From positions 940,579 to 1,004,578 of the forward strand of contig BPHK01000001.1 in NCBI GenBank assembly GCA_026003495.1: a stretch of DNA of 64,000 nt. The letters are read 5' to 3'. The translations under genes were made by a program, and so were the position numbers. The notes below the pieces were generated by a model. That model made no database searches, was not told the DNA's origin, and saw nothing but the letters and a program-made list of their open reading frames with translations. Origin of the DNA: Candidatus Kapaibacterium sp. (GTDB lineage Bacteria; Bacteroidota; Ignavibacteria; Kapaibacteriales; NICIL-2). The stretch's first letter is position 1, and every line of letters begins with the position of its first letter. Positions 29,795 to 60,398 of this stretch are shown here, in pieces.

Positions 29795-29868
29795 CGGAGT
29801 GTAGCGCAGCCCGGTAGCGCACACCTTTGGGGTGGGTGTGGTCGCGGGTTCAAATCCCGCCACTCCGA
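29795..29868 (+). tRNA. tRNA-Pro (anticodon GGG)
   Basis: Hand-folded cloverleaf: acceptor CGGAGTG/CACTCCG, D-stem GCGC/GCGC, anticodon stem CACCT/GGGTG with loop TTGGGGT, T-arm GCGGG-TTCAAAT-CCCGC, discriminator A; 74 nt, no encoded CCA. Confidence 0.85.
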
Positions 29869-29957
29869 CTGGTGGCGCCTGCAGCAATGCACGCGCCATT
29901 TTTGTTCGGAGGCTAACTTTGCTGCCGGAACATGGTTTCAGTTGGAGCATCCACGCA

Positions 29958-35126: not shown

Positions 35127-38100
35127 CTATCGAACGATGAGCAACTGTCGTGTTATGCGAACAGGACCGCTTTCGTAGCGGACGAAATAGAGTCCGCTGC
35201 TCATGTCTGCAATCGGCACGTCGAGTTGATAGGTGCCTGCGGAAAGCTCACCATCGAGTACTGTCCGCACCGGATTACCGAGTGCATCGTAGAAGCGAAT
35301 GCTTGTGGGTGCATCGAAGCCAACACCGAATCGAATTGTGACCGCATCACTTGTCGCTGGGTGGGGGCTAACGTCCACGATTGAGAACGTTGTCGTGGAG
35401 ACTTTGACAAAGCGTCCGTCAATGAAGCAAGTCGTCGGCAGCAAACTATCGCCGAGCACAGTAGGAATTACGCACCGCCGCTCACTGTTGCCGGCACCAT
35501 ATGGGATGCATTCGGCGATCGCAGTTGTAGCGAAGCGCTGCTCAGCAAGATCGCTAATGAGCACAGTAAAGCGGAGCGTTGCAACGGCGCCGTTGGCAGC
35601 AATTGGCGTCTGCCCGCGACCTTGAATGAGAAGCTCCGCAGTACTCGTTGTGCCATCGAGTGATTCTTGCGCTGTTAGTTGCCAAGTTGCATCAAGCACT
35701 TCTCCGCGCGTGATGCTGTTGGGCACGTAGAGGAGCTGCTTTGCGTTGTAACGAACGCGAATGTCGAATCCGTACACTTGCGCTCCTCCCCAGTTGAGAG
35801 AACGGACTTGCACTTGAGCGCCTGCATCGTTTCCGCTTCGGAAGTTGAACAGTGGGGAATCGAATGTCGTCCGTACTTCGATTGGGATAACGTACCCTAC
35901 CCCGCGGAGCTCAGCGGTATCGGCATCGCCGCCACGATATTCGACGCGAATAAATGCGCTATAGCCACGTGGTTGGTCAGGGAGGAATCGTACCGCAATT
36001 GGGCGTGTTTGCCCAGCCGATACCACCAGCGGATTGGCAGGCGTTGGCGGAGATTCGAGTGCGAAGTACGCAGCATCGGGTCCGAGGATTGTTGCACCGA
36101 TGACTTCGACGTCAGACGCGGGAGTGCCGGCAGGTGCGGTATTGGTCACTGTGGCGGCACCGAGGGGTTGATCACACGTGGTAACCGAGCCAAAGTCGTA
36201 TCCTTCCAGCGTCGGTTGGTTGACGGTATAGCCATAGCCAATTAGCTCGACGATCGTCTCTGCTTGCCCGGTCGGCTCTGGGACGGGAGGCTCGGCGTTG
36301 TGGAGGATACGCACAAGCGCTTTCCGCTCTCCTGTCCCTGATGGGCGAAATTGAACTGCCAAGAGCGCAGGCGCAGCACCAATCGGAAGTGTGGCATCTT
36401 GGAGGGCATCGAGCAACTGGAAATCCTCCGGGTAGAGGTTCCGATTTGGATCGCGCGTCGGGAGCAGCTCAACGGCATAAACGCGGAGGTCTGCTGATTG
36501 GCTCGTATTCGTGATGGTAACAAATTGTTCGGTGTTGCCGGCTTGGCTTTGGGTCGTTGTCCCCACCAGGATTGGTGTGCGGAAGATCGCACCCGTTGCC
36601 TCGATTTTTTCGAGGTAACCAAATGCAGTCAGTGCATCCGACCGGGTACCGACGCCAGTGAAGTCACCCAGGAGGCGACTTGTCAGATCAAATTCCGCTT
36701 GGGGTGTGCAGGCGATCTGAACGCGAACGACGTCTTGACCGTTGGGGAAGAGTGTAAACGGTGGCTGACGATCGGCACCGACAATGCGGAAATTCTGCTC
36801 GTTGGCAGGAAGGTACACAGCGGTGCATTGCACTTGATCTTGACCGTCGTTGCGAACGAGGCCATTGAGCACTTTTGTGGTACCGAGCCGAACGCGTCCC
36901 CAGCTGTTTCCAATGACAATTGGCCCTGGAGAGATTGATTGGCCTTTCCACTCCGACCATGGCTTGTCGCCTCCAGAGCCGGGCGCATCGCTCATGAAAC
37001 GGACGGTAATGGAGAAGGTGCTATCGTTTGTCGGGGCAAAACACATTTCCTTGAGAAAGACTTCGCCGCCCGGCGGAATCGTTATCGGCAGTGGCGGATC
37101 GGTCGGGTCGGTGAGACTAAATGGTGGCTGAATCGTCGAGCGATCGATGTCGGTGATTGTCAGTGTATCGGTGCCAGGGTTGCGGATGCGTAGTCCACGA
37201 GCTAACTGCTGAGAATGGCAGCGGGATTGACCCGATGGGACAGTTCCTGCGTCCCAATCATCGACGATGATGTGTGGCTGGATGCCACGCCCGAGAACCT
37301 GTACAGCGAACGGCGCACATTGCTCGACGACCAAGAGGGAATCCTCATCGCGCTCATTGTCGCGAACATGCTCAGTTTGGGGCGTGTAGCGGAGGCGGAC
37401 TTGAATGCTTTGTCGCGGATACAGTGCTAAGCCACCCGGTGGAATTGTCGGCTCCACAATTGCGAATGCTGACCCCTTTTTCAGACGGAGGTCCGTGATG
37501 AGAAATGTTGAATCTGCATTGTTCGTAATGGTTGCAGTTATCTCCGTAGATCGTCCGACACGAACGTTCCCGGCATCAATAGGATTGGGGCGGATCGAAA
37601 CCTTCGGTGCAACCCAGAAGACGCTGTCATAGCTGAAGTTGAGTGCACGATCGCCGACGTAGAAGTACGCTTGTGCATCTTTGGTTTTATCTATGACCCG
37701 CAGGCGGAATTTGACGATGCTGTTTTTCTGATCTTGCGGAAGGATGTTATCCGTGATGAGATTGCCATCAGCCTCGAGTAATTCAATTGCGTAGTTGAAC
37801 GATGGCTTGCCCTCGACAAAGTCGATGGCATTGATTCCGGTTCCAATATGGTTGAGGGTGTCGTTGATTGGAAAATCTTGTCCTGTCTCACGTGCAGTGT
37901 AGATGTAGTCACCGCATTCTTGTTCGCGGCTTAGTGGCGGTGGAATGGTATCGAATTCATCGAGTCTGCGGTAGGCGGTGGCAGCAGGCCACCCGTAGGA
38001 ATCGAAGCTGCCCCAACCGTAGATGTAGCCACCAAACGGTGCGTTTCCTTCGATCAGGTGCGCACCGTTGTTGACGAAGAGACGGGCGTAGTGAAAGTTC

Positions 38101-39476
38101 GTGCCAGGGATGCGGTTGCCGAGAATGTCCGGAGCAAGGGTAGTTACAGGGACGCCGTCAACCTTGATCGAGCGAAGGTCTTTCTGCTCTGGATCGTTGA
38201 TATCAGCAGATACGATCAAGTTGAAACGGTGGCGACTATAAGCGGGATTCGATGGGGCTTGGAAAATAGTAGCCTTCGTGTACTGCTCGATGGGGACAAC
38301 GTAGATCATGAATGGGTCGAACATGTTATTGTTGTCCCATTCCGCGGAGGCGGAGTACTGCATCAGGAAAAATGGTTTGTTTGATTTCCAGACCGACATG
38401 CCGCGTACACCGGTCGCTTGGCCAGGGCCAGTGACGACGAGCCCTGCATCCGGGAGCGAGCGTACCTCGCCACGCTTGAGACCTGGCATGATGAATTCTT
38501 CGAGCTTCTGTTTGGTCCTGAAATCGTACGTCGTACACACGATGTTCGTCCCATCCTGGAGAGCGACGACACGGAAAAAGTCCCCATAACCGCCACGTTC
38601 ATACTCGATGCTGACGTACGATCGCCCCCACATCGACGTCGGCGGGATCATTTCGATCATATGGTCACGGCCATTGAAAATATCGAAGCTTGGTACCATC
38701 GTCCGTTGGTGATAGCTAATGAACCCAATTGGTTTGTTTGCTCGGACGATGCTACCGGAAAGATCGAATTCCCCTCGAGTTGTGCCGTCTCCTTGGACAA
38801 GGTAGCACTGGCCAGGCTGTAATGTCACTGTCCAGGTTGCGCCGTACCGGCGTCCCTTTTCCGTCCGTGCTGATGTTATTCCGTGATCCCCGATATTCGG
38901 TTTGCGAAGCTCAATACTGACACGTGTATCCCTGTAGGCTGCAACAATAGCAAAACCACCTTTCCAGTTTCGGAATTCGCGAAAGTCTGGCCAGCCGAGG
39001 TGGATGTACTCATTGCCCCACGATTGGACCGGAATTGCTAAGTAACCATCAGAACTCACCTGCTTTCCATTGTAAACGTAAACAGAAACTGGGTCATCTG
39101 CGACAATCCGTACTGCAAGATCGAGCGGAACTTCACTTTCCTCTGCCTCTGGCATCGGCACGTCACGCAACGTCAGCACTGTAACGCGCATAGCTTGCAC
39201 GTTGAAGACTTTCTGGAAGCCCAGGCCTGGGATTTCGTACCGAAATCGGGTATTCCGTGATGACGTTACGTAGATCTCCCGGGCTGTTACCGGTTGCTGA
39301 GGACTATCGTTGAGCGGAAAGCAGAAATAAAATTCTTTCCCTTGCGAGCCGTTCGTCAAGAGCTCAGCGGCGGTGGGAATGCGTCCCGTACCCCGGGGTG
39401 CACGAAGCTCCTGAGCACTCGCAGCACTGTAGAGCAGGAGTGTCGCAATGGCCCAATGAGCAGCATTTCGAATCAT
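35127..39476 (-). CDS. very large secreted cell-surface protein with C-terminal T9SS sorting domain (function unknown)
   Basis: 1449 aa; signal peptide MIRNAAHWAIATLLLYSAASAQE; no catalytic motif recognised; the C-terminal about 85 aa (FSIVDVSPHPATSDAVTIRFGVGFDAPTSIRFYDALGNPVRTVLDGELSAGTYQLDVPIADMSSGLYFVRYESGPVRITRQLLIVR) resemble a Por/T9SS CTD. Confidence 0.75.
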   Translation of the reverse strand: MIRNAAHWAIATLLLYSAASAQELRAPRGTGRIPTAAELLTNGSQGKEFYFCFPLNDSPQQPVTAREIYVTSSRNTRFRYEIPGLGFQKVFNVQAMRVTVLTLRDVPMPEAEESEVPLDLAVRIVADDPVSVYVYNGKQVSSDGYLAIPVQSWGNEYIHLGWPDFREFRNWKGGFAIVAAYRDTRVSIELRKPNIGDHGITSARTEKGRRYGATWTVTLQPGQCYLVQGDGTTRGEFDLSGSIVRANKPIGFISYHQRTMVPSFDIFNGRDHMIEMIPPTSMWGRSYVSIEYERGGYGDFFRVVALQDGTNIVCTTYDFRTKQKLEEFIMPGLKRGEVRSLPDAGLVVTGPGQATGVRGMSVWKSNKPFFLMQYSASAEWDNNNMFDPFMIYVVPIEQYTKATIFQAPSNPAYSRHRFNLIVSADINDPEQKDLRSIKVDGVPVTTLAPDILGNRIPGTNFHYARLFVNNGAHLIEGNAPFGGYIYGWGSFDSYGWPAATAYRRLDEFDTIPPPLSREQECGDYIYTARETGQDFPINDTLNHIGTGINAIDFVEGKPSFNYAIELLEADGNLITDNILPQDQKNSIVKFRLRVIDKTKDAQAYFYVGDRALNFSYDSVFWVAPKVSIRPNPIDAGNVRVGRSTEITATITNNADSTFLITDLRLKKGSAFAIVEPTIPPGGLALYPRQSIQVRLRYTPQTEHVRDNERDEDSLLVVEQCAPFAVQVLGRGIQPHIIVDDWDAGTVPSGQSRCHSQQLARGLRIRNPGTDTLTITDIDRSTIQPPFSLTDPTDPPLPITIPPGGEVFLKEMCFAPTNDSTFSITVRFMSDAPGSGGDKPWSEWKGQSISPGPIVIGNSWGRVRLGTTKVLNGLVRNDGQDQVQCTAVYLPANEQNFRIVGADRQPPFTLFPNGQDVVRVQIACTPQAEFDLTSRLLGDFTGVGTRSDALTAFGYLEKIEATGAIFRTPILVGTTTQSQAGNTEQFVTITNTSQSADLRVYAVELLPTRDPNRNLYPEDFQLLDALQDATLPIGAAPALLAVQFRPSGTGERKALVRILHNAEPPVPEPTGQAETIVELIGYGYTVNQPTLEGYDFGSVTTCDQPLGAATVTNTAPAGTPASDVEVIGATILGPDAAYFALESPPTPANPLVVSAGQTRPIAVRFLPDQPRGYSAFIRVEYRGGDADTAELRGVGYVIPIEVRTTFDSPLFNFRSGNDAGAQVQVRSLNWGGAQVYGFDIRVRYNAKQLLYVPNSITRGEVLDATWQLTAQESLDGTTSTAELLIQGRGQTPIAANGAVATLRFTVLISDLAEQRFATTAIAECIPYGAGNSERRCVIPTVLGDSLLPTTCFIDGRFVKVSTTTFSIVDVSPHPATSDAVTIRFGVGFDAPTSIRFYDALGNPVRTVLDGELSAGTYQLDVPIADMSSGLYFVRYESGPVRITRQLLIVR

Positions 39477-39651
39477 CGGTCCTCCTCGAAACTGTTGAAT
39501 GCTTCATGGTTCCAAGCCAAAAATACTCAGCTCACACGTAAGAACCAAATGCTTACTCTAGAGCCGTTCGGTACACCGCACAATGCAGCAATTGCAGAGC
39601 AGATCAGTAGCGTTCTACTCTGCCCCGGTGTAGCAGCACTCTATTTTTGCA

Positions 39652-40593
39652 GTGTTGGATGTTGCTTCCACAACCGCAGCTGCAATGAGTGCAGAATTTC
39701 CCATTGTGTTTGAACCTGTGACGTTCGACAACCGCCGCCGTCCAGCGGAGGAATTCGCCAAAATTGCGCAGATGATTCGCCGTGACATTATCAAGTCGCT
39801 CGTTCTGGCAGGGTCGGGGCATAGTGGTGGTCCACTCGGGAGCACTGACATCTTCGCAGTGCTCTACTTCGGTGGATACATGCGCTATAACCCGCAGAAT
39901 TGGTGGACACCGCGGGACCGCTTCGTCTTGAGCGCTGGGCACATGTGTCCTGTCCTCTACGCAACACTTGCGAACACTGGCGCATTCCCCAAAGAAGAGC
40001 TTCGCACACTCCGAAAGTACAACTCCCGACTCCAAGGGCATCCTGGACGCGATATGGGCTTACCCGGCATCGAGACGTCGACTGGTTCACTCGGACAAGG
40101 CATCTCGATCGCTGTCGGTATGGCGATGGCTGATAAGCTCCTCGATCAAAACGGCTATCGCGTCTTTACGCTCACTGGCGATGGGGAACTCCAGGAAGGA
40201 AGTGTCTGGGAAGCAGCAATGGCTGCAGCGAACTACAAGCTCGACAACTTCTGCTGGATCATTGACAACAACGATTGCCAGATCGACGGCCGTGTCCATG
40301 AGGTGATGAGTATCTATCCGCTTGAGGAGAAGTGCCGTGCATTTGGGTTCGATGTCCTCACCGTCAACGGTCACGACTACGGAGAACTCTGCGCAGCCTT
40401 TGACCACTTCATCGCCAACAGTGAGAAAGGATCGGGCAAACCCACAGCAATCATCGCGAAAACCCTCATGGGCAAAGGCGTCTCCTTCATGGAGGACCGC
40501 TACGAATGGCACGGCAAGCCTCCCACGTGGGAACAGGCGCGCATTGCTCTCCGCGAATTAGGTGAAGATGTCCCAGAACCTGTTGCAGCATGA
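39652..40593 (+). CDS. transketolase, N-terminal (TPP-binding) subunit of a split transketolase
   Basis: GSGHSGGPLGSTDIFAVLYF...GHPG...GSLGQGISIAVGMA...LTGDGELQEG; the start may be the internal MSAEF (39685). Confidence 0.85.
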   Translation: MLDVASTTAAAMSAEFPIVFEPVTFDNRRRPAEEFAKIAQMIRRDIIKSLVLAGSGHSGGPLGSTDIFAVLYFGGYMRYNPQNWWTPRDRFVLSAGHMCPVLYATLANTGAFPKEELRTLRKYNSRLQGHPGRDMGLPGIETSTGSLGQGISIAVGMAMADKLLDQNGYRVFTLTGDGELQEGSVWEAAMAAANYKLDNFCWIIDNNDCQIDGRVHEVMSIYPLEEKCRAFGFDVLTVNGHDYGELCAAFDHFIANSEKGSGKPTAIIAKTLMGKGVSFMEDRYEWHGKPPTWEQARIALRELGEDVPEPVAA

Positions 40594-40615
40594 TTCACCA
40601 CCACCAATTGTGACA

Positions 40616-41659
40616 ATGAGCAAACCCTCTCAACTCCGCGGTATGAAACCTACCCGTCAAGGCTTCGGCGAAGGACTCGTCGTACTTGGTGAACGCTACG
40701 ACAACGTCGTCGTCCTCGGGGGTGATATCACTGGCTCGGTGATGACGTCACTGTTCAAGGAGCGATTCCCCGACCGCTTCTTCTCGATCGGTGTCGCCGA
40801 ACAGAATGCAACGACGATCGCTGCTGGTCTTGCCCTCAGCGGGAAGATTCCGTTCTTTGCGTCGTATGGTGCCTTCTGTGCGCTGCGCAACGCCGATCAA
40901 CTTCGCATCAGTGTTTGCTATAACGAGGTCAACGTAAAAATCGGAGGCGGGCACGCGGGCATCAGCGTCGGCCCAGATGGTGCTACTCACCAAGTGCTCG
41001 AAGAGATTGCCTACCTGCGCACGCTTCCGCACATGACGCTGCTTGTACCGTGCGACTACCTCGAGACAAAAAAAGCAACGATCGCGATGGGAGAGATGGT
41101 CGGGCCTGCATACATCCGCTTCGGACGGGCAGCAGTGCCGTTTTTCACAGCCGATGATACGCCCTTCGAAATCGGAAAAGCGCAAGTCTTTCGTGAAGGG
41201 AGCGACGTTGCACTCATCGCGTGTGGGGCAATGGTATGGGAGGCGCTATTGGCAGCCGAGCAACTTGCCAAACGTGGTATCCAGGCGAAAGTGATCAACG
41301 TTTCGACGATCAAGCCATTCGACGTCCAAACCGTTGTAGATGCAGCGCGCCAGTGCGGTGCAATTGTGACGGCGGAAGAACATCAGGTCCACGCAGGCTT
41401 GGGTGGAGCTGTGGCAGAGGTCGTTGCGAAGAATTTCCCCGTGCCGATCGAGTTCGTTGGAGTAAAAGATAGCTTTGGTGGCAGCGGCGAACCTGAAGAG
41501 CTCATGGAAAAGTTCGGTTTGACGTGGAAGGAAATCTACGCCGCAGCGCTCGTTGCAATGGAGCGTCGCGATCGCGGCCTCATTGGGTACCGCGCTGTCA
41601 AAGATGTCCCACACTATCACCCAGAGTTGCTCGAAGCCGATGGACAGCCCGCTCGGTAA
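40616..41659 (+). CDS. transketolase, C-terminal (pyrimidine-binding) subunit
   Basis: ORF 40562 trimmed to MSKPSQ after the upstream stop; FFSIGVAEQNATTIAAGLALSGKIPF...; C-terminal transketolase_C domain. Confidence 0.85.
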   Translation: MSKPSQLRGMKPTRQGFGEGLVVLGERYDNVVVLGGDITGSVMTSLFKERFPDRFFSIGVAEQNATTIAAGLALSGKIPFFASYGAFCALRNADQLRISVCYNEVNVKIGGGHAGISVGPDGATHQVLEEIAYLRTLPHMTLLVPCDYLETKKATIAMGEMVGPAYIRFGRAAVPFFTADDTPFEIGKAQVFREGSDVALIACGAMVWEALLAAEQLAKRGIQAKVINVSTIKPFDVQTVVDAARQCGAIVTAEEHQVHAGLGGAVAEVVAKNFPVPIEFVGVKDSFGGSGEPEELMEKFGLTWKEIYAAALVAMERRDRGLIGYRAVKDVPHYHPELLEADGQPAR

Positions 41660-43067
41660 GCTCTGCATCGCCTTTCTGGCTGTTGCGAATATTCTTCTCC
41701 GGGCGCAGACGCTCGTACTCTCGCTCGATTCCGCCGAACGGACATCTGCCACGCTCTATAGCAACGCAGCGATCCTGCGGCACCACTGGACGGTGCAAAT
41801 TCCCCCGGGTAGCTCGATGGTCCGTATTGAACAACTGCCCGAGATGGTTGCGCCGCTATCGCTTGGGCTACACTGGCAAGAGCCAGCAGTGAGAACGCTC
41901 ACGATGCGCTTGGTGCCGCCAGTGGAGAATGCTCCTGAACTGCTCCGCACATACGTTGGACGAGCAGTTTCGCTCCGCCGCCGTGATGGCATCGTTGAGG
42001 GTGAGCTTGTTCTCCCGCCGACGTCGCTCGTTGGAGGCGTCGAGCCTTGCTACGTCGGAGCTGTCCTCCGAACGCGAAGTGGCGAACTCTTAGTATCTCC
42101 GTGCGGCGAGCTTGTGCTCCCACCATCCGATGTGGCTATAGCGCGAACACCAGTGCTATCTGCTGAGGTATCGGTGCAGAACGCAGTGAAATCAGCGCTG
42201 GAGCTTCGCTATCAATGCGATGGCATCCAATGGCAAGCCAGCTACGACGCGACATTGCTCGACGATGACAAACTCCGACTGGAAGGTGTTGTCCACATCC
42301 TCAACAACACGCACACGTCGTTCCGGTGCAGCGAACTACGGCTTATTGCTGGCTCGGTCAACTTCCGTACTCCGAAAAGTACAGTCTTCGCTGATGTTGC
42401 TACCTCTGCGATGCGCACAGTAGAGGCTCAAGCGAGCCTTGCTCCGCTGGAGGAGAGCTTCGACGAGTACCACCTGTACACCTTGCCGTTTGGTGCCACA
42501 CTGGCAGCAAATTCGACGACGGTGCTGCTCCTGCGCCCCCGCGTCACACTGCCGGTCAAGCGACGGTTGATTGCGCGTGGTCGTTTCTACGGGCACACGA
42601 GTGCGGCTGATGATGGGAGTGTAGAGGTTCCTGTGTCCTCAATCGTTGAGTTCGTCAATGCGCCGCCTGATTCTCAACCGCTTCCAGCTGGACTACTCCG
42701 CGTGTGGAGGCAGTCGGCAGGTGGCTCGCTCGAGCTTGTTGGCCAGGATGAGATTTCGCATACGGCGCTTGGTGAACGTGTTGCTGTCGAAGTTGGTCGC
42801 GCCTTCGACGTTCGCGTTCGGCGACGTGATGTCGAAAGCCGTCGTCTCTCGGAGCGAGTAACCGAATACACTGTCGAGTATTCGCTCCAGAGTAGTCGCT
42901 CTCAGCGGACCGAACTGAGCGTTCTCGAGACGTTTGCGGGGAACTGGGAGATCATCTCCAGCACGATTCCTTACTCGAAGCGCTCGGCCCAGCAGGCGGA
43001 GTTTACGGCGACTCTCCCTCCGAAAGGCACTGCAACGTTCCGCTACACTGTGCGCCAATCGTGGTAG
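41640..43067 (+). CDS. DUF4139-family secreted protein (MuiA-like), hypothetical
   Basis: ORF 41553 trimmed to MDSPLGKLCIAFLAVANILLRAQ (signal-peptide-like); about 475 aa rich in beta-strand sequence with no catalytic motif. Confidence 0.5.
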   Translation: MDSPLGKLCIAFLAVANILLRAQTLVLSLDSAERTSATLYSNAAILRHHWTVQIPPGSSMVRIEQLPEMVAPLSLGLHWQEPAVRTLTMRLVPPVENAPELLRTYVGRAVSLRRRDGIVEGELVLPPTSLVGGVEPCYVGAVLRTRSGELLVSPCGELVLPPSDVAIARTPVLSAEVSVQNAVKSALELRYQCDGIQWQASYDATLLDDDKLRLEGVVHILNNTHTSFRCSELRLIAGSVNFRTPKSTVFADVATSAMRTVEAQASLAPLEESFDEYHLYTLPFGATLAANSTTVLLLRPRVTLPVKRRLIARGRFYGHTSAADDGSVEVPVSSIVEFVNAPPDSQPLPAGLLRVWRQSAGGSLELVGQDEISHTALGERVAVEVGRAFDVRVRRRDVESRRLSERVTEYTVEYSLQSSRSQRTELSVLETFAGNWEIISSTIPYSKRSAQQAEFTATLPPKGTATFRYTVRQSW

Positions 43068-43070
43068 GCG

Positions 43071-44132
43071 ATGGAGTACTGCATCCTGGCAATCGAAACC
43101 TCGTGCGATGAAACTGCTGCAGCAGTGATTGCAGAGCGGAAAGTGCTCAGCAATGTGATTGCCTCGCAGCAGGAGCACCATTGCTGGGGAGGAATCGTTC
43201 CCGAGATCGCCTCGCGCGCGCATCTGGAGCGTATTTGGTTCATCGCCGAACAGGCACTTGAGGATGCTGGAATAGAGCTTGACCAACTCGATGCGGTTGC
43301 GTGTACGGTGCAGCCTGGATTGGCTGGCTCACTCTTCGTTGGAGCGAACTTCGCCAAAGGACTTGCTCTCGGGCTGCGGCGAGCTTGCGTTCCAGTGCAT
43401 CACCTCGAAGGGCATATTCTCTCGGGATTTCTCGCTGATCCGGCATTAGAGCTTCCGGCAGTCGTTCTCGTTGCCAGCGGAGGCCACACACTGCTGGTGC
43501 TATTGGAGAGTGTGGCGCAGTACCGGCTGCTCGGCTCAACGCGGGATGATGCTGCCGGAGAAGCATTCGATAAAATCGCGACACTCCTGGGTCTGGGCTA
43601 TCCTGGCGGCCCGGCGCTCGAACAGTTGGCTCAGAGTGGGACACCGGATATACCGTTGCCGCGGCCGCTGCTTTCGGACCCACGGTTTGAATTTAGTTTC
43701 AGCGGACTCAAAACAGCGGTGCGGCGTTACCTTGCTGAGCATCCGCCCCAGAGCGATGCTGATCGTGCGCGTATTGCCGCTTCTGCCCAAGCAGCAATCG
43801 TCGAGGTACTCGTTGCGAAAACACTGCGCGCTGCTGATGCGTTCGGTGCGCGGAGCATCGTTCTTGCTGGTGGAGTTGCTGCCAATCAAATGCTCCAACA
43901 CTCGATGCGCACCAGGGCATTGCGACGATCAGTGCGAGTGATTGTCCCAGAGCGCCAGTACGTTCTCGACAACGCTGCGATGATCGGACTGGTTGCGCAC
44001 ATCAAGCTTGAGCTGCGTGGGACCGATGCATATCGGACACTTACCTTCTCGATCGATCCAACGCCGTGGCGCATGCATCGCCACGGTAGCAACAAGCATG
44101 CACGCTACGAGGATGCGACGTTCTCTTTGTAG
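43071..44132 (+). CDS. tsaD: tRNA N6-adenosine threonylcarbamoyltransferase
   Basis: MEYCILAIETSCDETAAAVI...; Kae1/TsaD family, 353 aa. Confidence 0.9.
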   Translation: MEYCILAIETSCDETAAAVIAERKVLSNVIASQQEHHCWGGIVPEIASRAHLERIWFIAEQALEDAGIELDQLDAVACTVQPGLAGSLFVGANFAKGLALGLRRACVPVHHLEGHILSGFLADPALELPAVVLVASGGHTLLVLLESVAQYRLLGSTRDDAAGEAFDKIATLLGLGYPGGPALEQLAQSGTPDIPLPRPLLSDPRFEFSFSGLKTAVRRYLAEHPPQSDADRARIAASAQAAIVEVLVAKTLRAADAFGARSIVLAGGVAANQMLQHSMRTRALRRSVRVIVPERQYVLDNAAMIGLVAHIKLELRGTDAYRTLTFSIDPTPWRMHRHGSNKHARYEDATFSL

Positions 44133-45443
44133 AACTCCGGCAGCCCCCGCTCGTCAAGGCGAACGACGATGCGGTCGCCGCTGGTGAAGTCACCGGCCAG
44201 GATTCGGAGCGAGAGTGGATCGGTGATGTGCCGCTGGATCGCTCGCTTGAGCGGCCGCGCACCGAATTGTGGATCGAAGCCAATGGTGCCAAGCCAATCG
44301 GCAACCTCGTCGGTAAGCTCAAGGTGAATGCCGTTTGCTTCTAATCGCTGCTGAAGTGAGCGGATTTGCAGGAGCACGATCTGGCGAATTTCACTCCGCA
44401 CGAGCGGCTTGAAGACGATGATCTCGTCAATGCGGTTGAGAAACTCTGGTCGGAAACGTTGGCGCAAAATCTCCGCAATGCGCACCCGCGCCTCGCGCAT
44501 GATCTCCTCGCGGTTTTCTTCGGTGACTTCGTGGAGCCGATCGAGCAGCACTTCCGTCCCAAGGTTCGAGGTCATGATGATGATCGTGTTGCGGAAGTTG
44601 ACAGTCCGCCCCTTGTTGTCGGTCAAGCCGTCCGTCATCGAGAACTTGGAGAAGGACGTTGAAGACATCGTTGTGCGCTTTTTCGATTTCGTCGAAGAGC
44701 ACAACAGAGTACGGACGGCGGCGAACAGCTTCGGTGAGCTGGCCGCCTTCTTCATAACCGACGTAGCCCGGCGGAGCACCGATAAGACGCGAGACCGAGT
44801 GCTTTTCCATGTACTCGCTCATGTCTATCCGCACGATCGCGTTTTCGTCGTCGAAGAGAAATTCCGCCAGTGCCTTGGCCATTTCTGTTTTTCCGACGCC
44901 GGTGGTGCCGAGGAAGATGAATGAGCCGATCGGGCGGTTGGGGTCTGCTAAGCCAGCGCGTGCGCGACGAATCGCATTAGCGATCGTCGTGATTGCTTCT
45001 TCCTGATCCACGATGCGTTGGTGGAGGCGTTCCTCCATCTTGAGCAGTTTGGTGCGCTCGGACTCCAGCATGCGTTGAACGGGAATGCCTGTCCATTTTG
45101 CGACGATTTCTGCGATGTCTTCGGCGGTCACTTCCTCTTTGAGGAGGGCACCACTGGCTTGCAGCTCTGCTAAGCGCTCGTTGAGTTGGTCGAGTTCTTT
45201 TTGAAGCTCGAGCAAGACGCCATAGCGCAGCTCAGCGACGCGACCGTAATCGCCGATCCGCTCAGCATCGGCAGCTTCGAGCTTGGTTTGCTCGATTTGC
45301 TCCTTGATGTCGCGAATGCGGCTGATGAGCTGCTTTTCCTGTTCCCAGCGAGCTTTGAGCGCCGCATGCTTTTCCCGAAGACTTGCCAATTCCCGCTCGA
45401 TTTCCTCCAGTCGGCGGCGCGTAGCCTGGAGCGTGTCGTTCAT
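44105..45443 (-). pseudogene. clpB: clpB remnant: C-terminal half only (M-domain fragment + AAA+ D2), interrupted by a +1 frameshift near 44625
   Basis: ORF 44427..45443 reads ...[21 protein letters not shown]...[99 protein letters not shown], then runs out of frame. ORF 44105..44779 continues in another frame with [22 protein letters not shown]...ARPLKRAIQ. An in-frame stop lies 8 codons upstream of the first Met, and the D1 / N-domain sequence is absent (plsY occupies the upstream space). Confidence 0.7.
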
Positions 45444-45579
45444 GTGCAGGAAGGGAGTTGTTTGAAACTACTGTGGCGATTAGATGACGAGCGATTGCAC
45501 TCGTTTATGCCATTGTGCGTCGTCGTGCTGGTAATTTTGCACTGTGAATGTTGAACATCGCTCCATGAATGCCGCCACG

Positions 45580-46294
45580 ATGGTATTCGATCCGCCTCTG
45601 CGGCTGATAGTTGTCGCGGTTGTGAGTTACTTGCTTGGCTCCTTTCCCAACAGCAGTGGTTGTCAGTCGGGTCTTTTTCGGCTTTGACATCCGAACCCGC
45701 GGCAGTGGGAATATGGGGAGCACCAATGCGTTCCGTGTACTCGGGTGGAAGTGGGGGCTGATCGTTCAAGTGGTGGACGTTCTCAAAGGATTGCTCGCGG
45801 TGACAGTGGTCGCGCATTTGATGGTTGGACAAGCGCTGCCATTTACCAACCGCACCCCGTTCGAGGACATTACCGTTGTGCGTTTGATTGCAGGGACATC
45901 GGCAGTGGTTGGGCACATTTTCAGCATCTTCGTCGGTTTTCGTGGAGGGAAAGGGGTCAATACAGCAGCGGGAATGCTCGTAGGAATCGCTCCGGTTGAA
46001 ATTGGAATTGCGTTTGGTGTGTTCTTGCTCGCTGTTGTGCTTAGCGGATACATTTCGCTTGGTTCTATCTCGGCAGCGATCGCCTTCCCAGGAGCAATGC
46101 TCGTTCGTCACAACGTCTGCGGTTCAGAAATCAACGGCTATCACATCCTCATTTGGTTTGCTTGCATTGTTTCCGCGTTGATCATCTACGCACATCGTAC
46201 GAACATCAAGCGTCTTCTCGAAGGGCAAGAGAATCGGTTCGAGAAGTTGTGGCTCGTTCGCCTGCGATGTTCGCTCCGCCGTACGCAGCACTAA
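45580..46294 (+). CDS. plsY: glycerol-3-phosphate acyltransferase PlsY (N-terminal 23 codons in a different frame: +1 frameshift near 45649)
   Basis: ATG at 45580 gives MVFDPPLRLIVVAVVSYLLGSFP, then the frame breaks; the track ORF 45635..46294 (TTG) continues as TAVVVSRVFFGFDIRTRGSGNMGSTNAFRVLG...; together they give a canonical PlsY. Confidence 0.75.
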
Positions 46295-47529: not shown

Positions 47530-48739
47530 CGTGCGTTGCTAATTGATAGACAGGATCGAAAACGGATGTGACGCTCGCAGTGGCGCTGTCGCGCAGGCGG
47601 TGAATTCGCAGTTGGTCGCCTGGTGCTAGCTGTTCGATTGCAGGGAGGATACGCCCATCTCGTTCGATGAGCGCAAAGCCACGGTCGAGTGGGCCGAGGG
47701 GGTGGAGTAACGCTATTGCAGAGCGGAGCTGTTCCTGCTGCTGAAGGCAAGTGTCAAGACTGCGTAAGGCAGCTGCACGCAATCGTTCAACGGCGTTTAT
47801 GAGCTGGAAGCGAAGATGCTCGTGGTGCAAGCTCAGCATGCGAGAGGTAGTGGGGGAGAGGAAATCTGCGATGAGCAACTCTGCTTGATCGAGTCGGCTC
47901 GCCAGCGCGGTGCGGGTGCGTTCGACCCAATCATCGAGCCACAAGAGAACGTCTTCGCGGCGAATCGGGGTGCAGAGCTCTGCGGCTGCTGTTGGTGTCG
48001 CAGCGCGGACGTCGGCGACAAAGTCCGCAATGGTGACGTCCGTCTCATGTCCGACTGCGGAAACGATCGGGACACGAGCGCGGAAGATTGCATCAGCGAC
48101 CGTGCGAGTATTGAACGCCCACAGATCCTCGATCGAACCGCCGCCGCGCCCGACGATGATGACGTCACATCCGAATGATTCGAGCTCTGCGAGAGCACGG
48201 GCAATGTCTTCGGCAGCGTCCGCTCCTTGGACGAGCGTCGGGCGGAACACGACCGTTGCCGCTGGGTTGCGTCGTTCCAGCGTCGTGAGAATATCGCGTA
48301 TCGCTGCGCCACTGGGCGAAGTTGCCACTCCGATAATCTGCGGCAAGCGTGGGAGCCGTCGCTTGCGCTCTGGATCGAAATAGCCCGCTGCTGCAAGCTC
48401 TTTTTTGAGCTGTTCGAAGGCAAGGTAGAGATCGCCAACCCCTGCAGGCTGGACCGACCAACAGTCAATTTGGTAGTTTCCCTGCAGCGGATAGACGCTC
48501 AACCGTCCGCGCACCTTGACCTGCATGCCATCCTGGAGCTCGAAAGGAACTGTCCGTCCACGCCAGAGGACGCATCGAATTTGTGCGCCTTCGTCCTTGA
48601 GCGTAAAGTAGCGATGGCCTGACTGGTGACGCTTGTAGTTGGAGACTTCGCCGAGGACGTGCACAAGCGGGAATTCTTCCTCCAGGACCTGGCTGATCGC
48701 TTGTGTCAGGAGCGATACTGTTAGCACGTGTTCATTCAT
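47522..48739 (-). CDS. xseA: exodeoxyribonuclease VII large subunit
   Basis: ORF 47522..48811 trimmed to MNEHVLTVSLLTQAISQVLEEEFPLVHVLGEVSNYKRHQSGHRYFTLKDE; OB-fold plus catalytic domain; overlaps xseB by 8 nt. Confidence 0.85.
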   Translation of the reverse strand: MNEHVLTVSLLTQAISQVLEEEFPLVHVLGEVSNYKRHQSGHRYFTLKDEGAQIRCVLWRGRTVPFELQDGMQVKVRGRLSVYPLQGNYQIDCWSVQPAGVGDLYLAFEQLKKELAAAGYFDPERKRRLPRLPQIIGVATSPSGAAIRDILTTLERRNPAATVVFRPTLVQGADAAEDIARALAELESFGCDVIIVGRGGGSIEDLWAFNTRTVADAIFRARVPIVSAVGHETDVTIADFVADVRAATPTAAAELCTPIRREDVLLWLDDWVERTRTALASRLDQAELLIADFLSPTTSRMLSLHHEHLRFQLINAVERLRAAALRSLDTCLQQQEQLRSAIALLHPLGPLDRGFALIERDGRILPAIEQLAPGDQLRIHRLRDSATASVTSVFDPVYQLATHDG

Positions 48740-48781
48740 GATGTGCAAATTAGTAGTTGCTGCACAACGTCGAGTGTATCC

Positions 48782-49258
48782 ATGCGGATTGGCTTTGGTG
48801 TGGATGTTCACCGATTCGCACGCGGCGATCGGTTGATGTTAGGCGGTGTCGAGGTTCCTGCGCCCTACGGCGTCAAGGCGCACAGCGATGGAGACGTAGT
48901 CCTCCATGCGCTCTGCGATGCGTTGCTCGGTGCAGCAGCGCTCGGCGATATTGGCGAGCATTTCCCCGATTCAGATCCACAGTGGCGGAACATGCCGAGC
49001 GGACGCTTTGTCGAGCGCGTTGTCGAGCTTCTCGCCAAGCGCTCGTTCCGCGTGGTCAACGTAGATGTCAGTCTCCTGCTCGAGACGCCAAAGATCACAC
49101 CCTATAAACGCGCGATGCGGGAGAACATTGCTGCGCTTTGTCGTATTGCGCCCGAAGCAGTTTCGATCAAAGCAACGACGAGCGAGCAAATTGGCTTTGT
49201 TGGTCGTAAGGAAGGGCTTGCCGCATATTGTGTCTGCCTCATCGAGGAAGTGTCGTGA
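48782..49258 (+). CDS. ispF: 2-C-methyl-D-erythritol 2,4-cyclodiphosphate synthase
   Basis: MRIGFGVDVHRF...HSDGDVVLHALCDALLGA...; 158 aa. Confidence 0.9.
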   Translation: MRIGFGVDVHRFARGDRLMLGGVEVPAPYGVKAHSDGDVVLHALCDALLGAAALGDIGEHFPDSDPQWRNMPSGRFVERVVELLAKRSFRVVNVDVSLLLETPKITPYKRAMRENIAALCRIAPEAVSIKATTSEQIGFVGRKEGLAAYCVCLIEEVS

Positions 49259-51339
49259 GATGGGTTGCGCTGGTAATTGGTGCTGCTCTGCTCGGGAGCT
49301 GCTCCTCTCCAGAGGAAAGGTGGTACCGCTTGCAGGTTGAATGTGCAGAGGTTCCTGATGCCACTGGACTCCGAGTACCTGCATATTCTCAGAGCGGCGC
49401 CCTGCTCGGCTACAATGAGGATCGCCATGCCATCGTCCAGCGTTCGAAGCAGGGAGAGCAAGTGTTGCTTGAGCTCCGCGATAGTGTCCTCGATGTTACC
49501 TGGGACGGTGAGCACTACATCCTCGCACTGCAAGTTGGCGATAGCATCAGAATCCTTCACTTCGAGAGAAATCGCACCCTCCGATTGCGCTGCCAGTGTG
49601 TCGGGCATGGAGGACGTTTTCTCCCTGCCGATCGTTCTGCACGATGGGCATGGCTATCGAGCGACGGGCAAATCGTTGTGCACTATGGTGACGAGAAGAT
49701 TGCTGCTGAGCCCGGCCGCATTATCGTTCGCGACGGCGCGAAGCTGTTCTATGCCACAAGCGATACGACGCTTGTCGTGCTCGATGGTGGCGGCGATCGC
49801 TTGCCGGACATTGTCGTCTGGGAAGGAATCGCAGTGAACTCTGGGCAGAAGCGATTCTCGGGAGTTGTCCCAGCCAAGCTCGACCACGTCGCTGCCACTG
49901 CACACGTGGCAGCGGCGATTGTACGTGCAGGCGAAAGCTACGCTATCGAATGGTACCGTCCGACAGCGCAAGGGGACGTTGTCTTCGAAGCGCAAACCTT
50001 GTTGCCACAGAGGCTCCTGGAGCCGAAGGGAATGCTGCTTTCCGGTGATACTGCCGTCGCTGTCTTTGGCAGTGGCGTTGCTGTTGCAACGGAGAGAAGT
50101 GTTCTTGCAGTCTCCACCAGTACTGGTGCATTGAGGTTGCGCGGTGTACAGTCTGCTGTGCAGCAGGACGGTCGCATCCTGATCAGCGATGGTAGCCGTG
50201 CCATTGTGCTTGCATTTGGCACAAATCCATGGTGGTGGGTGGAACGAAGTGTGCCGATACTCTACCGCATTGCACTTGCGCTCATTGGTATCGTCGTCTT
50301 CGTTGGAATTGTCAGTCGCATCGGTCGCTATCGGCGACTGGTGGGCGCACTACTTGAGAAAGGCTCGCGCGGTGCGCTGATTGTCGTTGATCGCCACGGT
50401 CGTGTGCGGCGGCTCAATTCCGTTGCGCGTCTGTGGCTTGGGATCGAACGAGGAACGCCGCTGGGGCGGCCGCTTGCGCAGTACTTGCGCCAGCACTGGG
50501 TGCCGCTTGGGGAGATCATTGAGCAGTCACTTTCGCTTCGTTCTGGCATTGTGCGCGAGGTTGCCATCACATCCGATGGTACTGAACAGCGATTCATCGT
50601 TACGGCTGAACCGCTCTATGGCTTGTTTACTCGGTTTGAAGGTCTGCTTCTTTCCCTGTGGGATGTTACGCCGCAGTATCAGCAATGGCAGCTTCTCAAT
50701 TGGGCGCAGTTGGCGCATGATTTGCAGACGTCCGTGACCACGATTCGCCTCGATGCTGAGCAGCTTGCTAGCGTAGTAATGCCAAATGGACGTCAGCTGC
50801 AACAGCGGATCCTCCGTCAGGCAACTACGCTTCTGCAACGCTTCCGCGATTTGTTAGCGCTGGGTCGTGGTGAAGAGGCGGCGCTCGAAGAATACGCCGT
50901 TGCAGAACTCTTCGCTGAAGTTGTTAGCGATCTCGAAGCGGTCGTTCCTGCACAGATTTCGCTTGTGATTCGTCCTACACCGCTGGTTGTCAGACTCGAT
51001 CGCCGCCGTATCCTGCGCGCACTGCACAATGCAGTTACCAACGCGATCCGTGCGATTGGTTCGCGTGAAGGAATAGTGGAGCTCTCCGCAACACTTGCAG
51101 CCGAGAGCATCATCCTGGCTGTGCGCGATACGGGCGTTGGCATGGATGAAGAGACGTGTCGGAAGATGCAGCAGCCACTGTTTACAACACACCGCGCAGG
51201 TCACGGGTTAGGTTCGGTAATCATGCAGCAGATGGTGCGAGCACACGGCGGATGGATCGAGGTTCGCTCGCGCCTTGGCGAAGGGACGACCGTTATGTTT
51301 CACTTGCCACGTTCGCTCTATGTACGACACCAGCGTTGA
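49255..51339 (+). CDS. sensor histidine kinase with large periplasmic beta-propeller-like domain (signal peptide, TM, PAS, HisKA, HATPase_c)
   Basis: GTG start overlapping the ispF stop (GTGA); TM ILYRIALALIGIVVFVGIV; H-box LAHDLQTSVTTI; N/G boxes LHNAVTNAIRA, DTGVGMD, GHGLGSVI; no response regulator adjacent. Confidence 0.8.
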   Translation: MRWVALVIGAALLGSCSSPEERWYRLQVECAEVPDATGLRVPAYSQSGALLGYNEDRHAIVQRSKQGEQVLLELRDSVLDVTWDGEHYILALQVGDSIRILHFERNRTLRLRCQCVGHGGRFLPADRSARWAWLSSDGQIVVHYGDEKIAAEPGRIIVRDGAKLFYATSDTTLVVLDGGGDRLPDIVVWEGIAVNSGQKRFSGVVPAKLDHVAATAHVAAAIVRAGESYAIEWYRPTAQGDVVFEAQTLLPQRLLEPKGMLLSGDTAVAVFGSGVAVATERSVLAVSTSTGALRLRGVQSAVQQDGRILISDGSRAIVLAFGTNPWWWVERSVPILYRIALALIGIVVFVGIVSRIGRYRRLVGALLEKGSRGALIVVDRHGRVRRLNSVARLWLGIERGTPLGRPLAQYLRQHWVPLGEIIEQSLSLRSGIVREVAITSDGTEQRFIVTAEPLYGLFTRFEGLLLSLWDVTPQYQQWQLLNWAQLAHDLQTSVTTIRLDAEQLASVVMPNGRQLQQRILRQATTLLQRFRDLLALGRGEEAALEEYAVAELFAEVVSDLEAVVPAQISLVIRPTPLVVRLDRRRILRALHNAVTNAIRAIGSREGIVELSATLAAESIILAVRDTGVGMDEETCRKMQQPLFTTHRAGHGLGSVIMQQMVRAHGGWIEVRSRLGEGTTVMFHLPRSLYVRHQR

Positions 51340-56936: not shown

Positions 56937-59003
56937 CGAATGCGGATCTTCCAGTGGCTGCTGATCCTTGTGTGTGTTGCTCATACCCTTGTTGCGCAGC
57001 CTTCTCGTGGCGCCAAAGCCAAACGCTCTTCGTCCGTTGCTCCTGCGTCCACGACTATCCTCGCTCGCATCGGGCCGGAGGTCGTTACCTACGAAGACAT
57101 CGAGACGACCTATCTGCGCAATGCGAATCGTCCGCACAAATCCCTGATGGATATGCCACGCGATACCGTGCTCGAGTTTTTGCGGCTCTACACGAATTAC
57201 CGCCTCAAGGTGCTCGATGCAATTGCACGTGGCTACGACAAGGACTCAGCAGTCCTCTCCGAGGTGGCTGCCAATCGCCGCTTAGTAGCGGAGACGTTCC
57301 TCTACGAAAAGCGCATTGTCGAGCCAAACGTTGAACAAGCACTGCAACGCAGAGCTTACGAGCTCAAGCCAGCAGTCATCGTCGTTACGATCCCACAAGG
57401 AGACAATGCGGATACGACTGCAGCCTATACCAAAGCGATGGCATGCTTACGTCTGGTGCAAAGCGGCGCTTCGTTTGAACAGGTTGCACGCGATTCCTCC
57501 GATGATAAAGAGACCGGACGCAACGGTGGGGTATTACCGTACATCACTGCACTCTCCGGTGTGATCCGCCCGTTGGAGGATGCAGCCTATGCGCTCGAGC
57601 CAGGGCAGGTCTATCCGCATCCAGTGCGGGCGCGGTTTGTGTACGTGCTTGTCAAACTACTCGATAAGCGCCTGCGCGAGATGGTTCGGGTTCGGCATAT
57701 CCTCCTTGTGCCCCAGCAAGGAGAAGACTCGCTTGCTGTGGAGCGTCGTGCTGACAGCTTGCTTCACGCGTTACAGGGGGCACCAGTTGAGCGCTTTGCC
57801 GAGGCAGCGCGACAGCTTTCGAGCGATAAATCGAGTGCTGCGGGTGGCGGGCTACTTGGCAATGGTGCATTCTACTGCCGCTCGCTTGGATTTGAAAGCG
57901 ACAACCGCCGCCTTCTGCCGCAATTCGAGGATGTGCTCTTTTCGCTCCGTGATGGGCAGGTTGGCATTGCGCGCACAGTCTATGGGGTGCACATCATCCG
58001 TCGCGATTCGACAAAACCATATCACCCCGATGACGAGCGCGATGCAGTACGCCGTCTCTACCGACGCTACAACTTCGAGGACGACAAGCGCGCGTTCCTC
58101 GACGGAGAGAAAAAACGCGCGGGATGGTCGTTGCGTGAAAATGTCTTCGCTGCCCTGCTCGCCGCTGTCAATCCAGCCAAGAGCACACGCGATAGTGCGT
58201 GGGATGCTGGGATTGGCAACAATCTGCGCACGGAGGTGCTCTACTCGTTCGGCTCGCGAGGTGGAATGACTGTTGGCGCGTTTATTGACTCACTCAAGAA
58301 ACATCGGCAGCCCTACACGCTCAATCGGCAGGGTTTGGAGGCAGCGATCAACAAAATCACAGACCCTATGATCATAGCCGAACTCACTGCAACGCTCGAA
58401 CAGCAATACCCACAATTTGCTCGGCTTGTGCGTGAATTTCGCGACGGCATTCTGCTCTTCAAGGTCGAGGACCAAGAGGTTTGGTCGAAGCTGAAATTCG
58501 ACACCGCACTCGCACGCGCGTACTACGACTCGACTGCCTCGCGGTACAAGACTGAGCTTGCCTACGACGTGAGTGAAATCTACGTGTTCAGCGATAGCGT
58601 GGCAAAGGAACTTGCTGAGAAAGCCAAGCAAACACGTTCGCAGAGTGAGTTCGAAGCGCTTGCCGAGCAGTACACCCAGCGCGCTGGCTATCGCGAAAAG
58701 AAAGGTCACTGGGGCAAGCAATCGGTGAAAAGCTCAGCGCTCGCCAAGCTCGTTGCAGCCAACCAGCCAGAGGAGGGGAAAGTGATCGGCCCTCTTTCGT
58801 TCGAAAACGGCTACAGTATCCTCCGTGTCAACGCGATCTATCCGCCCCGGCAGAAAACATTCGAGGAAGCAATTCCGGACATTGCTTCTGCGGTGCAAGA
58901 AATCAAACAGCGGCAGCTGACCGAGCAGTGGCTCGAGCAGCTCAAGAAAAAGTTTCCCGTGCGCTACGAGATGGCGACCATCAACAAGCTTTTCCGCCGG
59001 TGA
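56937..59003 (+). CDS. periplasmic peptidyl-prolyl cis-trans isomerase (SurA/PpiD-like chaperone, parvulin domains)
   Basis: ORF 56847 trimmed to MRIFQWLLILVCVAHTLVAQ (signal peptide); SurA-like N-domain plus rotamase region; about 688 aa. Confidence 0.7.
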   Translation, partial: RMRIFQWLLILVCVAHTLVAQPSRGAKAKRSSSVAPASTTILARIGPEVVTYEDIETTYLRNANRPHKSLMDMPRDTVLEFLRLYTNYRLKVLDAIARGYDKDSAVLSEVAANRRLVAETFLYEKRIVEPNVEQALQRRAYELKPAVIVVTIPQGDNADTTAAYTKAMACLRLVQSGASFEQVARDSSDDKETGRNGGVLPYITALSGVIRPLEDAAYALEPGQVYPHPVRARFVYVLVKLLDKRLREMVRVRHILLVPQQGEDSLAVERRADSLLHALQGAPVERFAEAARQLSSDKSSAAGGGLLGNGAFYCRSLGFESDNRRLLPQFEDVLFSLRDGQVGIARTVYGVHIIRRDSTKPYHPDDERDAVRRLYRRYNFEDDKRAFLDGEKKRAGWSLRENVFAALLAAVNPAKSTRDSAWDAGIGNNLRTEVLYSFGSRGGMTVGAFIDSLKKHRQPYTLNRQGLEAAINKITDPMIIAELTATLEQQYPQFARLVREFRDGILLFKVEDQEVWSKLKFDTALARAYYDSTASRYKTELAYDVSEIYVFSDSVAKELAEKAKQTRSQSEFEALAEQYTQRAGYREKKGHWGKQSVKSSALAKLVAANQPEEGKVIGPLSFENGYSILRVNAIYPPRQKTFEEAIPDIASAVQEIKQRQLTEQWLEQLKKKFPVRYEMATINKLFRR

Positions 59004-60275: not shown

Positions 60276-60309
60276 TGGGGAAGCGATGCTCGTATTTTTG
60301 CGCTGCGCT

Positions 60310-60398
<89 letters not shown>

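Follow-up and report, generated by a model that had tools for sequence, protein, structure and literature searches.

Bacterial ClpB, as known from Escherichia coli and Thermus thermophilus (PDB 1QVR), is a class I Hsp100 protein, with both AAA+ tiers, nucleotide-binding domains 1 and 2 (NBD1 or D1, NBD2 or D2), in one chain. Human CLPB, or Skd3 (PDB 7TTR and 7US2), has only an AAA+ module of the NBD2 type with D2-small, together with ankyrin repeats; it lacks a middle domain (M-domain) and an NBD1 partner, and is Hsp70-independent. ClpC, ClpA and ClpE hold homologous D2 modules, the M-domain of ClpC being shorter. A divided ClpB has been engineered: according to its citation in PMC4239642, the NBD1-M and NBD2 portions of T. 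thermophilus ClpB were active together when expressed separately (Beinker et al. 2005 J Biol Chem 280:37965). Here we describe a gene, termed clpB-C, on the minus strand of a 64,000-nucleotide (nt) stretch of Candidatus Kapaibacterium sp. (contig BPHK01000001.1 of assembly GCA_026003495.1, forward-strand positions 940,579 to 1,004,578; hereafter the window). We consider it likely that clpB-C is one half of a two-gene ClpB of Kapaibacteria, Ignavibacteria and Chloroherpeton (Bacteroidota-Chlorobiota group); its frameshift at position 44624 is most probably an assembly error.

In the list of open reading frames (ORFs) and their translations, an ATG at 45443 opens a minus-strand ORF of 338 amino acids (aa; 44427..45443), and a stop codon can be read directly eight codons 5′ of this Met in the same frame (*FQTTPFLHM), as an initial annotation of the window had described. 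The first frame is good through ...VLDDGRL, the remainder of the gene is read in a second frame (ORF 44105..44779, with its stop at 44105), and removal of one extra base yields a protein of 445 aa. A Pfam scan of this repaired protein returned AAA_2 (4.8e-72, aa 170-341) and ClpB_D2-small (6.8e-27, aa 348-427), and detected no Clp_N, AAA (D1), AAA_lid_9 or ankyrin repeats. The protein aligns with residues 432-848 of E. coli ClpB and 428-844 of T. thermophilus ClpB, that is, from M-domain helix 2 to the C-terminus; the E-value against 1QVR in a search of solved structures was 4.9e-152, and a likeness of this order (about 1e-150) is far past chance. Identity to full-length ClpBs is about 55-64%. 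Both the Pfam scan and the structure alignment agree with the initial annotation that only the distal M-domain and D2 are present, the gene comprising helices 2-4 and NBD2 without the N-domain or D1 (Table 1).

The catalytic set of NBD2 is present, with Walker A (GTTGVGKT), Walker B, the pore loop GYVG, GARP and D2-small, and the Tyr of M-domain motif 2 is found in ELRYG, where Tyr74 of clpB-C is aligned to E. coli Tyr503, a residue whose role is described in PMC3887210. When 13 family members were aligned, Tyr74 and many positions within aa 8-75 were invariant, the first ~35 residues being rich in such positions (T8, R11-I15, E18-A20, L29, W33, E36, K37), and a segment containing WTGIPV was nearly invariant (D109...E127).

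Among the features that define a ClpB, clpB-C thus carries the NBD2 module with D2-small and an M-domain with the motif-2 Tyr, a predicted DnaK contact; helix 1 lies on a partner N-half, a separate family of 435-441 aa that also supplies the Clp_N and NBD1 absent from the polypeptide that bears NBD2. The clpB-C polypeptide by itself does not qualify as a class I Hsp100 protein, while the system as a whole corresponds to ClpB. Unlike the bacterial ClpBs, whose sequence it matches from helix 2 to the C-terminus with the catalytic motifs and the motif-2 Tyr kept, the split family consists of two unlinked genes cut in the distal loop of the M-domain, and in it two chains would be needed to make up motif 1 and the small subdomain of NBD1. 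As in Skd3, the only AAA+ module is of the NBD2 type with D2-small, but clpB-C keeps helices 2-4, has a matching N-half gene and matches ClpB at 1e-152 as against about 1e-64 for CLPB, so that it falls outside a definition of the Skd3 type, with an ankyrin domain and no M-domain. The scores for ClpC, ClpA and ClpE (E 1e-123 to 1e-82) are far weaker than that for ClpB. The engineered T. thermophilus split, as far as the citing paper describes it, is the closest functional precedent and shows that chaperone activity needs no covalent link between the two tiers; in contrast to its artificial cut after the M-domain, the cut in clpB-C is natural, clade-wide and between helices 1 and 2.

Two families of half-length ClpB

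The repaired 445-aa sequence was searched against 5.8 billion proteins, and the best 120 matches were considered. These were 65-100% identical to the query and, with two exceptions (a 321-aa fragment and a 674-aa chimeric partial ClpB keeping part of D1), were proteins of 439-489 aa with AAA_2 and ClpB_D2-small only; the taxa named were Chlorobi bacterium NICIL-2, bacterium HR20/HR21, Candidatus Kapaibacterium / Kapabacteria and Ignavibacteria. The top match, P0001 (445 aa, 99.6% identical to the repaired protein), occurs on no fewer than 24 contigs of ENA, NCBI, JGI and Logan, with the gene order of the window (mutL ... ruvX-HK-ispF, xseAB, gpsA-plsY, clpB-C, tsaD, transketolase; HK, histidine kinase). 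In a lineage with 67% identity clpB-C still adjoins plsY, and in an Ignavibacteria lineage it is stand-alone as well, in another neighbourhood. A scan of contigs with the C-half alignment used patterns that were too general, and the matches listed were mostly full-length ClpBs of other phyla; among them were D2-only open frames in a metagenome-assembled genome (MAG) of Chloroherpetonaceae and in two other GTDB genomes, and an ordinary full-length clpB in 72 other genomes of many phyla. A search of a representative library with P0001 returned mainly fragments and full-length ClpBs, and gave no information on further half-size families.

These matches bear directly on the initial annotation, which took the gene for a disaggregase remnant, suggested that an intact clpB might exist elsewhere or that the N-terminal half had been lost by rearrangement, and proposed that relatives be checked for a full-length clpB between tsaD and plsY. 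Its description of the surroundings holds: the window contains no D1, plsY diverges from the 5′ end of clpB-C (ATG 45580) and fills the space upstream, and tsaD (43071-44132, plus strand) adjoins and is intact. The tsaD gene converges on the 3′ end of clpB-C, the two overlapping by 28 nt (44105-44132), an overlap kept in the three related contigs L001-L003, and no terminator-like hairpin was seen between them. That a full-length clpB decayed here through deletion or rearrangement of its 5′ half, or that a mis-assembly dropped D1, is nonetheless very improbable. What the relatives carry between tsaD and plsY is a stand-alone D2-only gene, kept in that position on the at least 24 contigs; the half-size gene with the same neighbours recurs in independent ENA, NCBI, JGI and Logan assemblies and in lineages down to 65% identity; the best 120 matches include no full-length member; and the gene is under strong purifying selection. 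Truncation of the homologues by gene calling is excluded by upstream stops and by differing upstream genes. An old rearrangement was the right kind of idea, but it would have given a working two-gene ClpB and not debris, and the N-half was not lost with it: by these comparisons clpB-C is not a decayed remnant, and the N-half appears to persist in the lineage as a separate conserved gene.

No D1-like sequence was detected within the 64-kb window by tblastn with a partial ClpB, four N-halves of the Fibrobacteres-Chlorobi-Bacteroidetes (FCB) group and a true N-half, and no N-half lay 10 kb or less from the C-half in six contexts. A weak D1 match at 63.3 kb was rejected, as it belongs to the ABC ATPase LptB. 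An unsplit ClpB (from L012), cut down to its 435 N-terminal residues, served as query for the N-half and retrieved many fragments at contig ends together with two 437-aa proteins interior to contigs of 0.3 and 1.8 Mb, both ending ...IKQLEIEREALKRE(LQA/IYA)*. One of these 437-aa proteins, used as query in turn, gave about 70 clusters of proteins 435-441 aa long. Their taxon names are Kapabacteria, Kapaibacterium, Ignavibacteria(e) and Chlorobi, their only domains are Clp_N, AAA and AAA_lid_9, and all stop 0-4 residues past ...LEIEREAL(R/K/L)RE(L/I). These clpB-N genes are complete and contig-interior, have downstream neighbours of their own, and encode the N domain, NBD1 and M-domain helix 1. 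When metagenomes were scanned with a DNA pattern for the N-half N-terminus, N-half genes were recovered at about 60 loci, but none from the L001 lineage, which is nearest to the window. The scan also gave the unsplit ClpBs closest to the halves (L134, L138 and L166), which are 66% identical to both halves and have the N-terminal signature in common with them.

On the unsplit protein of L134 (...LEIEREAVKRDNDQEKLKAINEQLANLEE...) the two halves abut with no loss and no overlap, the N-half ending ...LEIEREALRRELNAA* and the C-half starting directly after it. This places the cut, as judged from the alignments, in the loop between M-domain helices 1 and 2, at about E. coli residue 430; it is the 'distal loop' of Hsp104/ClpB studied by DeSantis et al. 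(PMC3887210). The complementary boundaries argue for an ancient fission of clpB within this loop. Database names for both halves are generic ('AAA family ATPase', 'Clp protease N-terminal domain-containing protein', 'ClpB'). A full-text literature search, whose coverage was incomplete and which is therefore not proof of absence, found no account of a naturally split ClpB, the only precedent found being the engineered T. thermophilus protein; a conserved natural fission of ClpB is thus apparently undescribed.

Both halves are found in one genome in the Ignavibacteria RIFOXY MAGs, as judged from accession blocks and a shared metagenome. The N-half P0352 (JGI contig Ga0208373_1000906) has the accessions OGU92394.1 in Ignavibacteria bacterium RIFOXYC2_FULL_35_21 and OGV22355.1 in RIFOXYA2_FULL_35_10; the C-half P0102 has OGU93542.1 and OGV22146.1 and occurs in two further MAGs. 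In whole-genome shotgun submissions GenBank protein accessions are given out in blocks; as the N- and C-half accessions are 1148 (OGU) and 209 (OGV) numbers apart, both genes are placed in the same MAGs. JGI metagenome 3300025152 likewise holds both halves, on different contigs, the C-half contig (Ga0208373_1001006) having a GC content of 33.7% and the N-half contig one of 33.1%, and in NCBI assembly GCA_001802975.1 the N-half is on a 44-kb contig. In the RIFOXY MAGs (L225-L227) clpB-N lies near tsaE, and in the window clpB-C abuts tsaD; TsaD and TsaE share the t6A tRNA-modification pathway, and the proximity of a clpB half to both is probably a coincidence.

A candidate two-chain disaggregase

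What is observed is how the two genes are built, that they are conserved, that the boundaries of the halves complement each other and that both halves occur in the same MAGs; from this a mechanism can be proposed. An ancient fission between M-domain helices 1 and 2 would have given rise to clpB-N (435-441 aa) and clpB-C (439-450 aa). One N-chain and one C-chain would pair through the coiled coil of helix 1 and helix 2 (M-domain motif 1), and this pairing would also complete the NBD1 small subdomain in trans, rebuilding a ClpB-like protomer; six such pairs could then form the usual two-tier hexamer, through which aggregated proteins would be threaded while motif 2 binds DnaK.

Two conserved parts of clpB-C seem to make sense only with a partner, namely the helix-2 strand (aa 1-~35) and the WTGIPV segment. 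In full-length ClpB the latter comes back from the M-domain and completes the NBD1 small subdomain. An AlphaFold2 monomer model of clpB-C has long helices at residues 2-63 and 66-96, and its lowest confidence (predicted local distance difference test, pLDDT, of 30-37) is at residues about 98-137, which hold the WTGIPV segment, as would be expected for an element that packs on a partner chain; the values for NBD2 are 70-90. The activity of the engineered T. thermophilus split, as reported in the citing paper, makes a two-chain ClpB biochemically plausible by analogy.

Alternatively, the 445-aa protein could be an autonomous single-ring disaggregase, an NBD2-only hexamer with motif 2 that works in the manner of Skd3, the N-half being unrelated or independent. 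The two genes are unlinked in all contexts seen, the NBD2, pore loop and DnaK-contact Tyr are intact, and NBD2-only disaggregases do exist (human CLPB, with E about 1e-64 to clpB-C; PMC7343390). Such a role leaves without explanation a partner strand for helix 1 at aa 1-~35 and a highly conserved WTGIPV segment that is unplaced in the monomer model, as well as an N-half that stops precisely where the C-half starts and shares its taxa and MAGs. An autonomous role is for these reasons less likely than a two-chain ClpB, and we regard it as improbable. A more far-reaching proposal, that an entire class-level lineage (Kapaibacteria, Ignavibacteria and Chloroherpeton) runs its Hsp70-dependent disaggregase as six N-chains and six C-chains with an inter-chain regulatory M-domain, the C-half perhaps acting also as a lone, single-ring Skd3-like unfoldase that keeps an Hsp70-docking arm, is put forward tentatively. 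If it were true, the ratio of N- to C-chains could be set by the cell, the genes being unlinked, and the arrangement would be a natural, undescribed uncoupling of the two rings of ClpB.

The natural fission also offers a ready experiment on three questions about Hsp100 machines: by what means an M-domain with an inter-chain motif 1 holds the motor back and switches it on, whether covalent coupling of the two AAA+ rings is needed in vivo, and whether an NBD2 ring that has an arm for docking Hsp70 is functional by itself.

The extra base at position 44624

As the initial annotation had recognised, a single extra nucleotide puts the two parts of clpB-C in different frames. Compared with the related contigs L001-L003, which are 91-93% identical to the window in DNA overall, clpB-C has exactly one additional base (minus strand GGCTT[G]ACCGAC, a C at plus-strand position 44624), which at least 24 related contigs lack. 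The product as assembled would consist of 273 native residues and an out-of-frame tail of 65 aa, without sensor-1, the GARP arginine region or D2-small. Besides the inserted base, clpB-C differs from L001 at 41 nt, 36 of them at third codon positions, and the repaired protein differs from P0001 by two conservative changes, S362A and V442A; for comparison, the amino-acid changes relative to relatives number 20 in tsaD, 15 in mutL and 10 in gpsA. Two amino-acid changes against 41 nt changes argue that clpB-C has been under strong purifying selection essentially to the present. A single lesion, few amino-acid changes and intact orthologues on at least 24 contigs are not the marks of a pseudogene.

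The lesion is not the only one of its kind. Out of 16 genes common to the window and its relatives, 14 are intact and two, clpB-C and plsY, are frame-shifted. In plsY a change of frame separates codons 1-25 (MVFDPPLRLIVVAVVSYLLGSFP...) from the other 219 codons and leaves the first transmembrane helix out of frame; the relatives have one base fewer (GGGAAA-GAACC as against GGGAAAGGAGCC in the window) and encode an intact PlsY of 237 aa. A gene for a SurA/PpiD-like peptidyl-prolyl isomerase (PPIase) appears similarly divided, ORF 58649-59650 carrying SurA_N_3 and ORF 59211-60275 the rotamase domain; in a coding-frame scan of the whole window, from its sequence alone, the coding signal passes from one frame to the other at 59437/59445 without a gap. 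All three shifts are +1, among about 57 genes in the window, and plsY is normally essential, which makes an insertion-error process in the assembly the likelier explanation. The +1 shift at 44624 is seen in this assembly alone and is no part of the biology of the family; we regard it as probably an assembly artefact, the shifts in plsY and the SurA-like gene pointing to indel-error trouble in this assembly. Full-length clpB genes of unrelated MAGs (L043 and L083; Spirochaetia and Alphaproteobacteria) are likewise broken into two frames, frameshift artefacts being common in the long clpB gene of MAG assemblies.

Programmed +1 ribosomal frameshifting at CUU-G, of the prfB kind, would also deliver the full 445 aa. 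A CUU Leu codon does stand where the shift is needed (CGG CUU G ACC), in formal resemblance to the slip codon of prfB, but the site is unconserved, every relative being in frame (GGCTTACCGAC), and inspection revealed neither an A-site stop or rare codon nor a Shine-Dalgarno-like stimulator upstream. Two other genes of the window also have similar shifts, and on all these grounds recoding is exceedingly improbable.

Logan assemblies of run DRR290133 provided an independent view of the strain. One contig (L090) has 100% DNA identity to the window over 38071-44597 (6.5 kb), and a second matches LptB exactly, corresponding to roughly 60465-64000 by protein match alone. The two contigs, of 10.3 and 3.6 kb, cover none of the three shift sites; being identical but short, they indicate that the window's strain was in that sample at modest coverage. 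Neither the 338-aa ORF nor GpsA of the window had an exact match in the searched collection, which does not include the window's own assembly, and no second copy of the shift site was found there.

Several points weigh against a split ClpB whose frameshift is an assembly error. The extra base lies outside any homopolymer run, so the typical homopolymer error is no explanation for it, and the DRR290133 contig ends 27 nt before 44624 and does not settle the frameshift. The N-half was not found for the window's own genome, of which 64 kb was searched, and its presence there is inferred. Placement of both halves in the same MAGs draws on accession blocks and one metagenome, for one species group of Ignavibacteria. 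The two genes were never adjacent in the six C-half contexts, which gives the partnership no operon support, and reassembly and activity of the halves are inferred from sequence.

The first two of these points, together with the accuracy of the assembly that the 6.5-kb identity implies up to that end, would suit a recent true pseudogene, in which a genuine insertion had knocked out the clpB-C of a split family in a strain lacking or losing ClpB activity. With two amino-acid changes among 41 nt differences such an inactivation would be very recent, and with the same +1 lesion in plsY 1 kb away and a third in the SurA-like gene, three independent inactivations within 64 kb are less likely than error; a real recent lesion at 44624 is therefore unlikely. 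Pending a check of the reads, clpB-C is to be annotated as an intact member of the split family; it should be taken neither for a pseudogene nor for evidence that the genome is decaying.

Upstream element and neighbouring genes

Upstream of clpB-C a TCGTCA (45486-45490, minus strand) lies 47 nt 5′ of the ATG. The motif TCGTC(T/A) was found 25-75 nt upstream of the start in 24/51 clpB-N and 4/7 clpB-C genes (the window included), compared with 2/65 full-length clpB genes, an enrichment in the halves over full-length clpB with a Fisher p of 9e-9. The loci include L004, L010 and L001 and, for clpB-N, L118, L176, L205 and L109, and GAAATTT often occurs about 13-20 nt upstream of the motif. TCGTC(T/A) may be a shared alternative-sigma promoter or operator that co-regulates both halves; a sigma-70 consensus scan of 45444..45579 gave no match.

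In several high-GC Kapaibacteria-like lineages (L091, L214-L223, L158, L169 and L211) a PAS/HisKA kinase gene comes after ispF, and clpB-N overlaps its stop codon. An orthologous ispF-kinase pair is present in the window at 48728-51339 on the plus strand (IspF 57% and kinase 31% identical), with ruvX next to it, and clpB-C lies 3.3 kb upstream of ispF, on the opposite side from ruvX. This context may be a trace of the ancestral position of clpB.

Table 1. Positions of clpB-C, its parts and other features of the window.
Feature	Position	Strand	Basis
Phytoene/squalene synthase	9231-10235	+	
Amine-oxidase/phytoene-desaturase-like genes (two)	10040-11698 and 13450-15009	+	
Family-2 glycosyltransferase	12374-13537	+	
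clpB-C, probable C-terminal gene of split ClpB	44105..45443	-	ORFs, Pfam, 99.6% identity to P0001
D2-small domain, aa 346-445; second frame only	44105..44407	-	Pfam ClpB_D2-small
GARP arginine region	44252-44263	-	motif position
NBD2 large subdomain; frameshift inside	44408..44948	-	motif positions, Pfam AAA_2
Extra base (coding G, plus-strand C), after codon 273 (DDGRL/TDNKG)	44624	-	alignment with L001-L003
Walker B	44676-44705	-	motif position
Pore loop GYVG	44757-44768	-	motif position
Walker A GTTGVGKT	44886-44909	-	motif position
aa 98-165, WTGIPV-containing segment and linker to NBD2	44949..45152	-	family alignment, model
M-domain helices 2-4, aa 1-97, including Hsp70-contact ELRYG; without helix 1	45153..45443	-	PDB alignment, model
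136-nt intergenic region, common to divergent plsY	45444..45579	.	upstream comparison
plsY with +1 shift near 45642	45580-46294	+	comparison with relatives
SurA/PpiD-like PPIase with +1 shift near 59438	58649-60275	+	window coding-frame scan

Elsewhere in the window, 9231-15009 on the plus strand holds a carotenoid-type gene cluster, the members of which are given in Table 1. A very large protein of about 1450 aa is encoded at 35127-39503 on the minus strand; it is 89% identical to its counterpart in L002, with small in-frame indels, and its orthologue in relatives carries the Pfam families IgGFc_binding, cohesin-like and Por_Secre_tail, the last being associated with type IX secretion. Genes for tRNA-Ser(CGA) and tRNA-Leu(CAG) stand in tandem at 60310-60493 and one for tRNA-Pro(GGG) lies at 29795-29869, all on the plus strand. 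The mechanically called ORF 60220-61581 crosses both tandem tRNA genes, and its true start is therefore further downstream.

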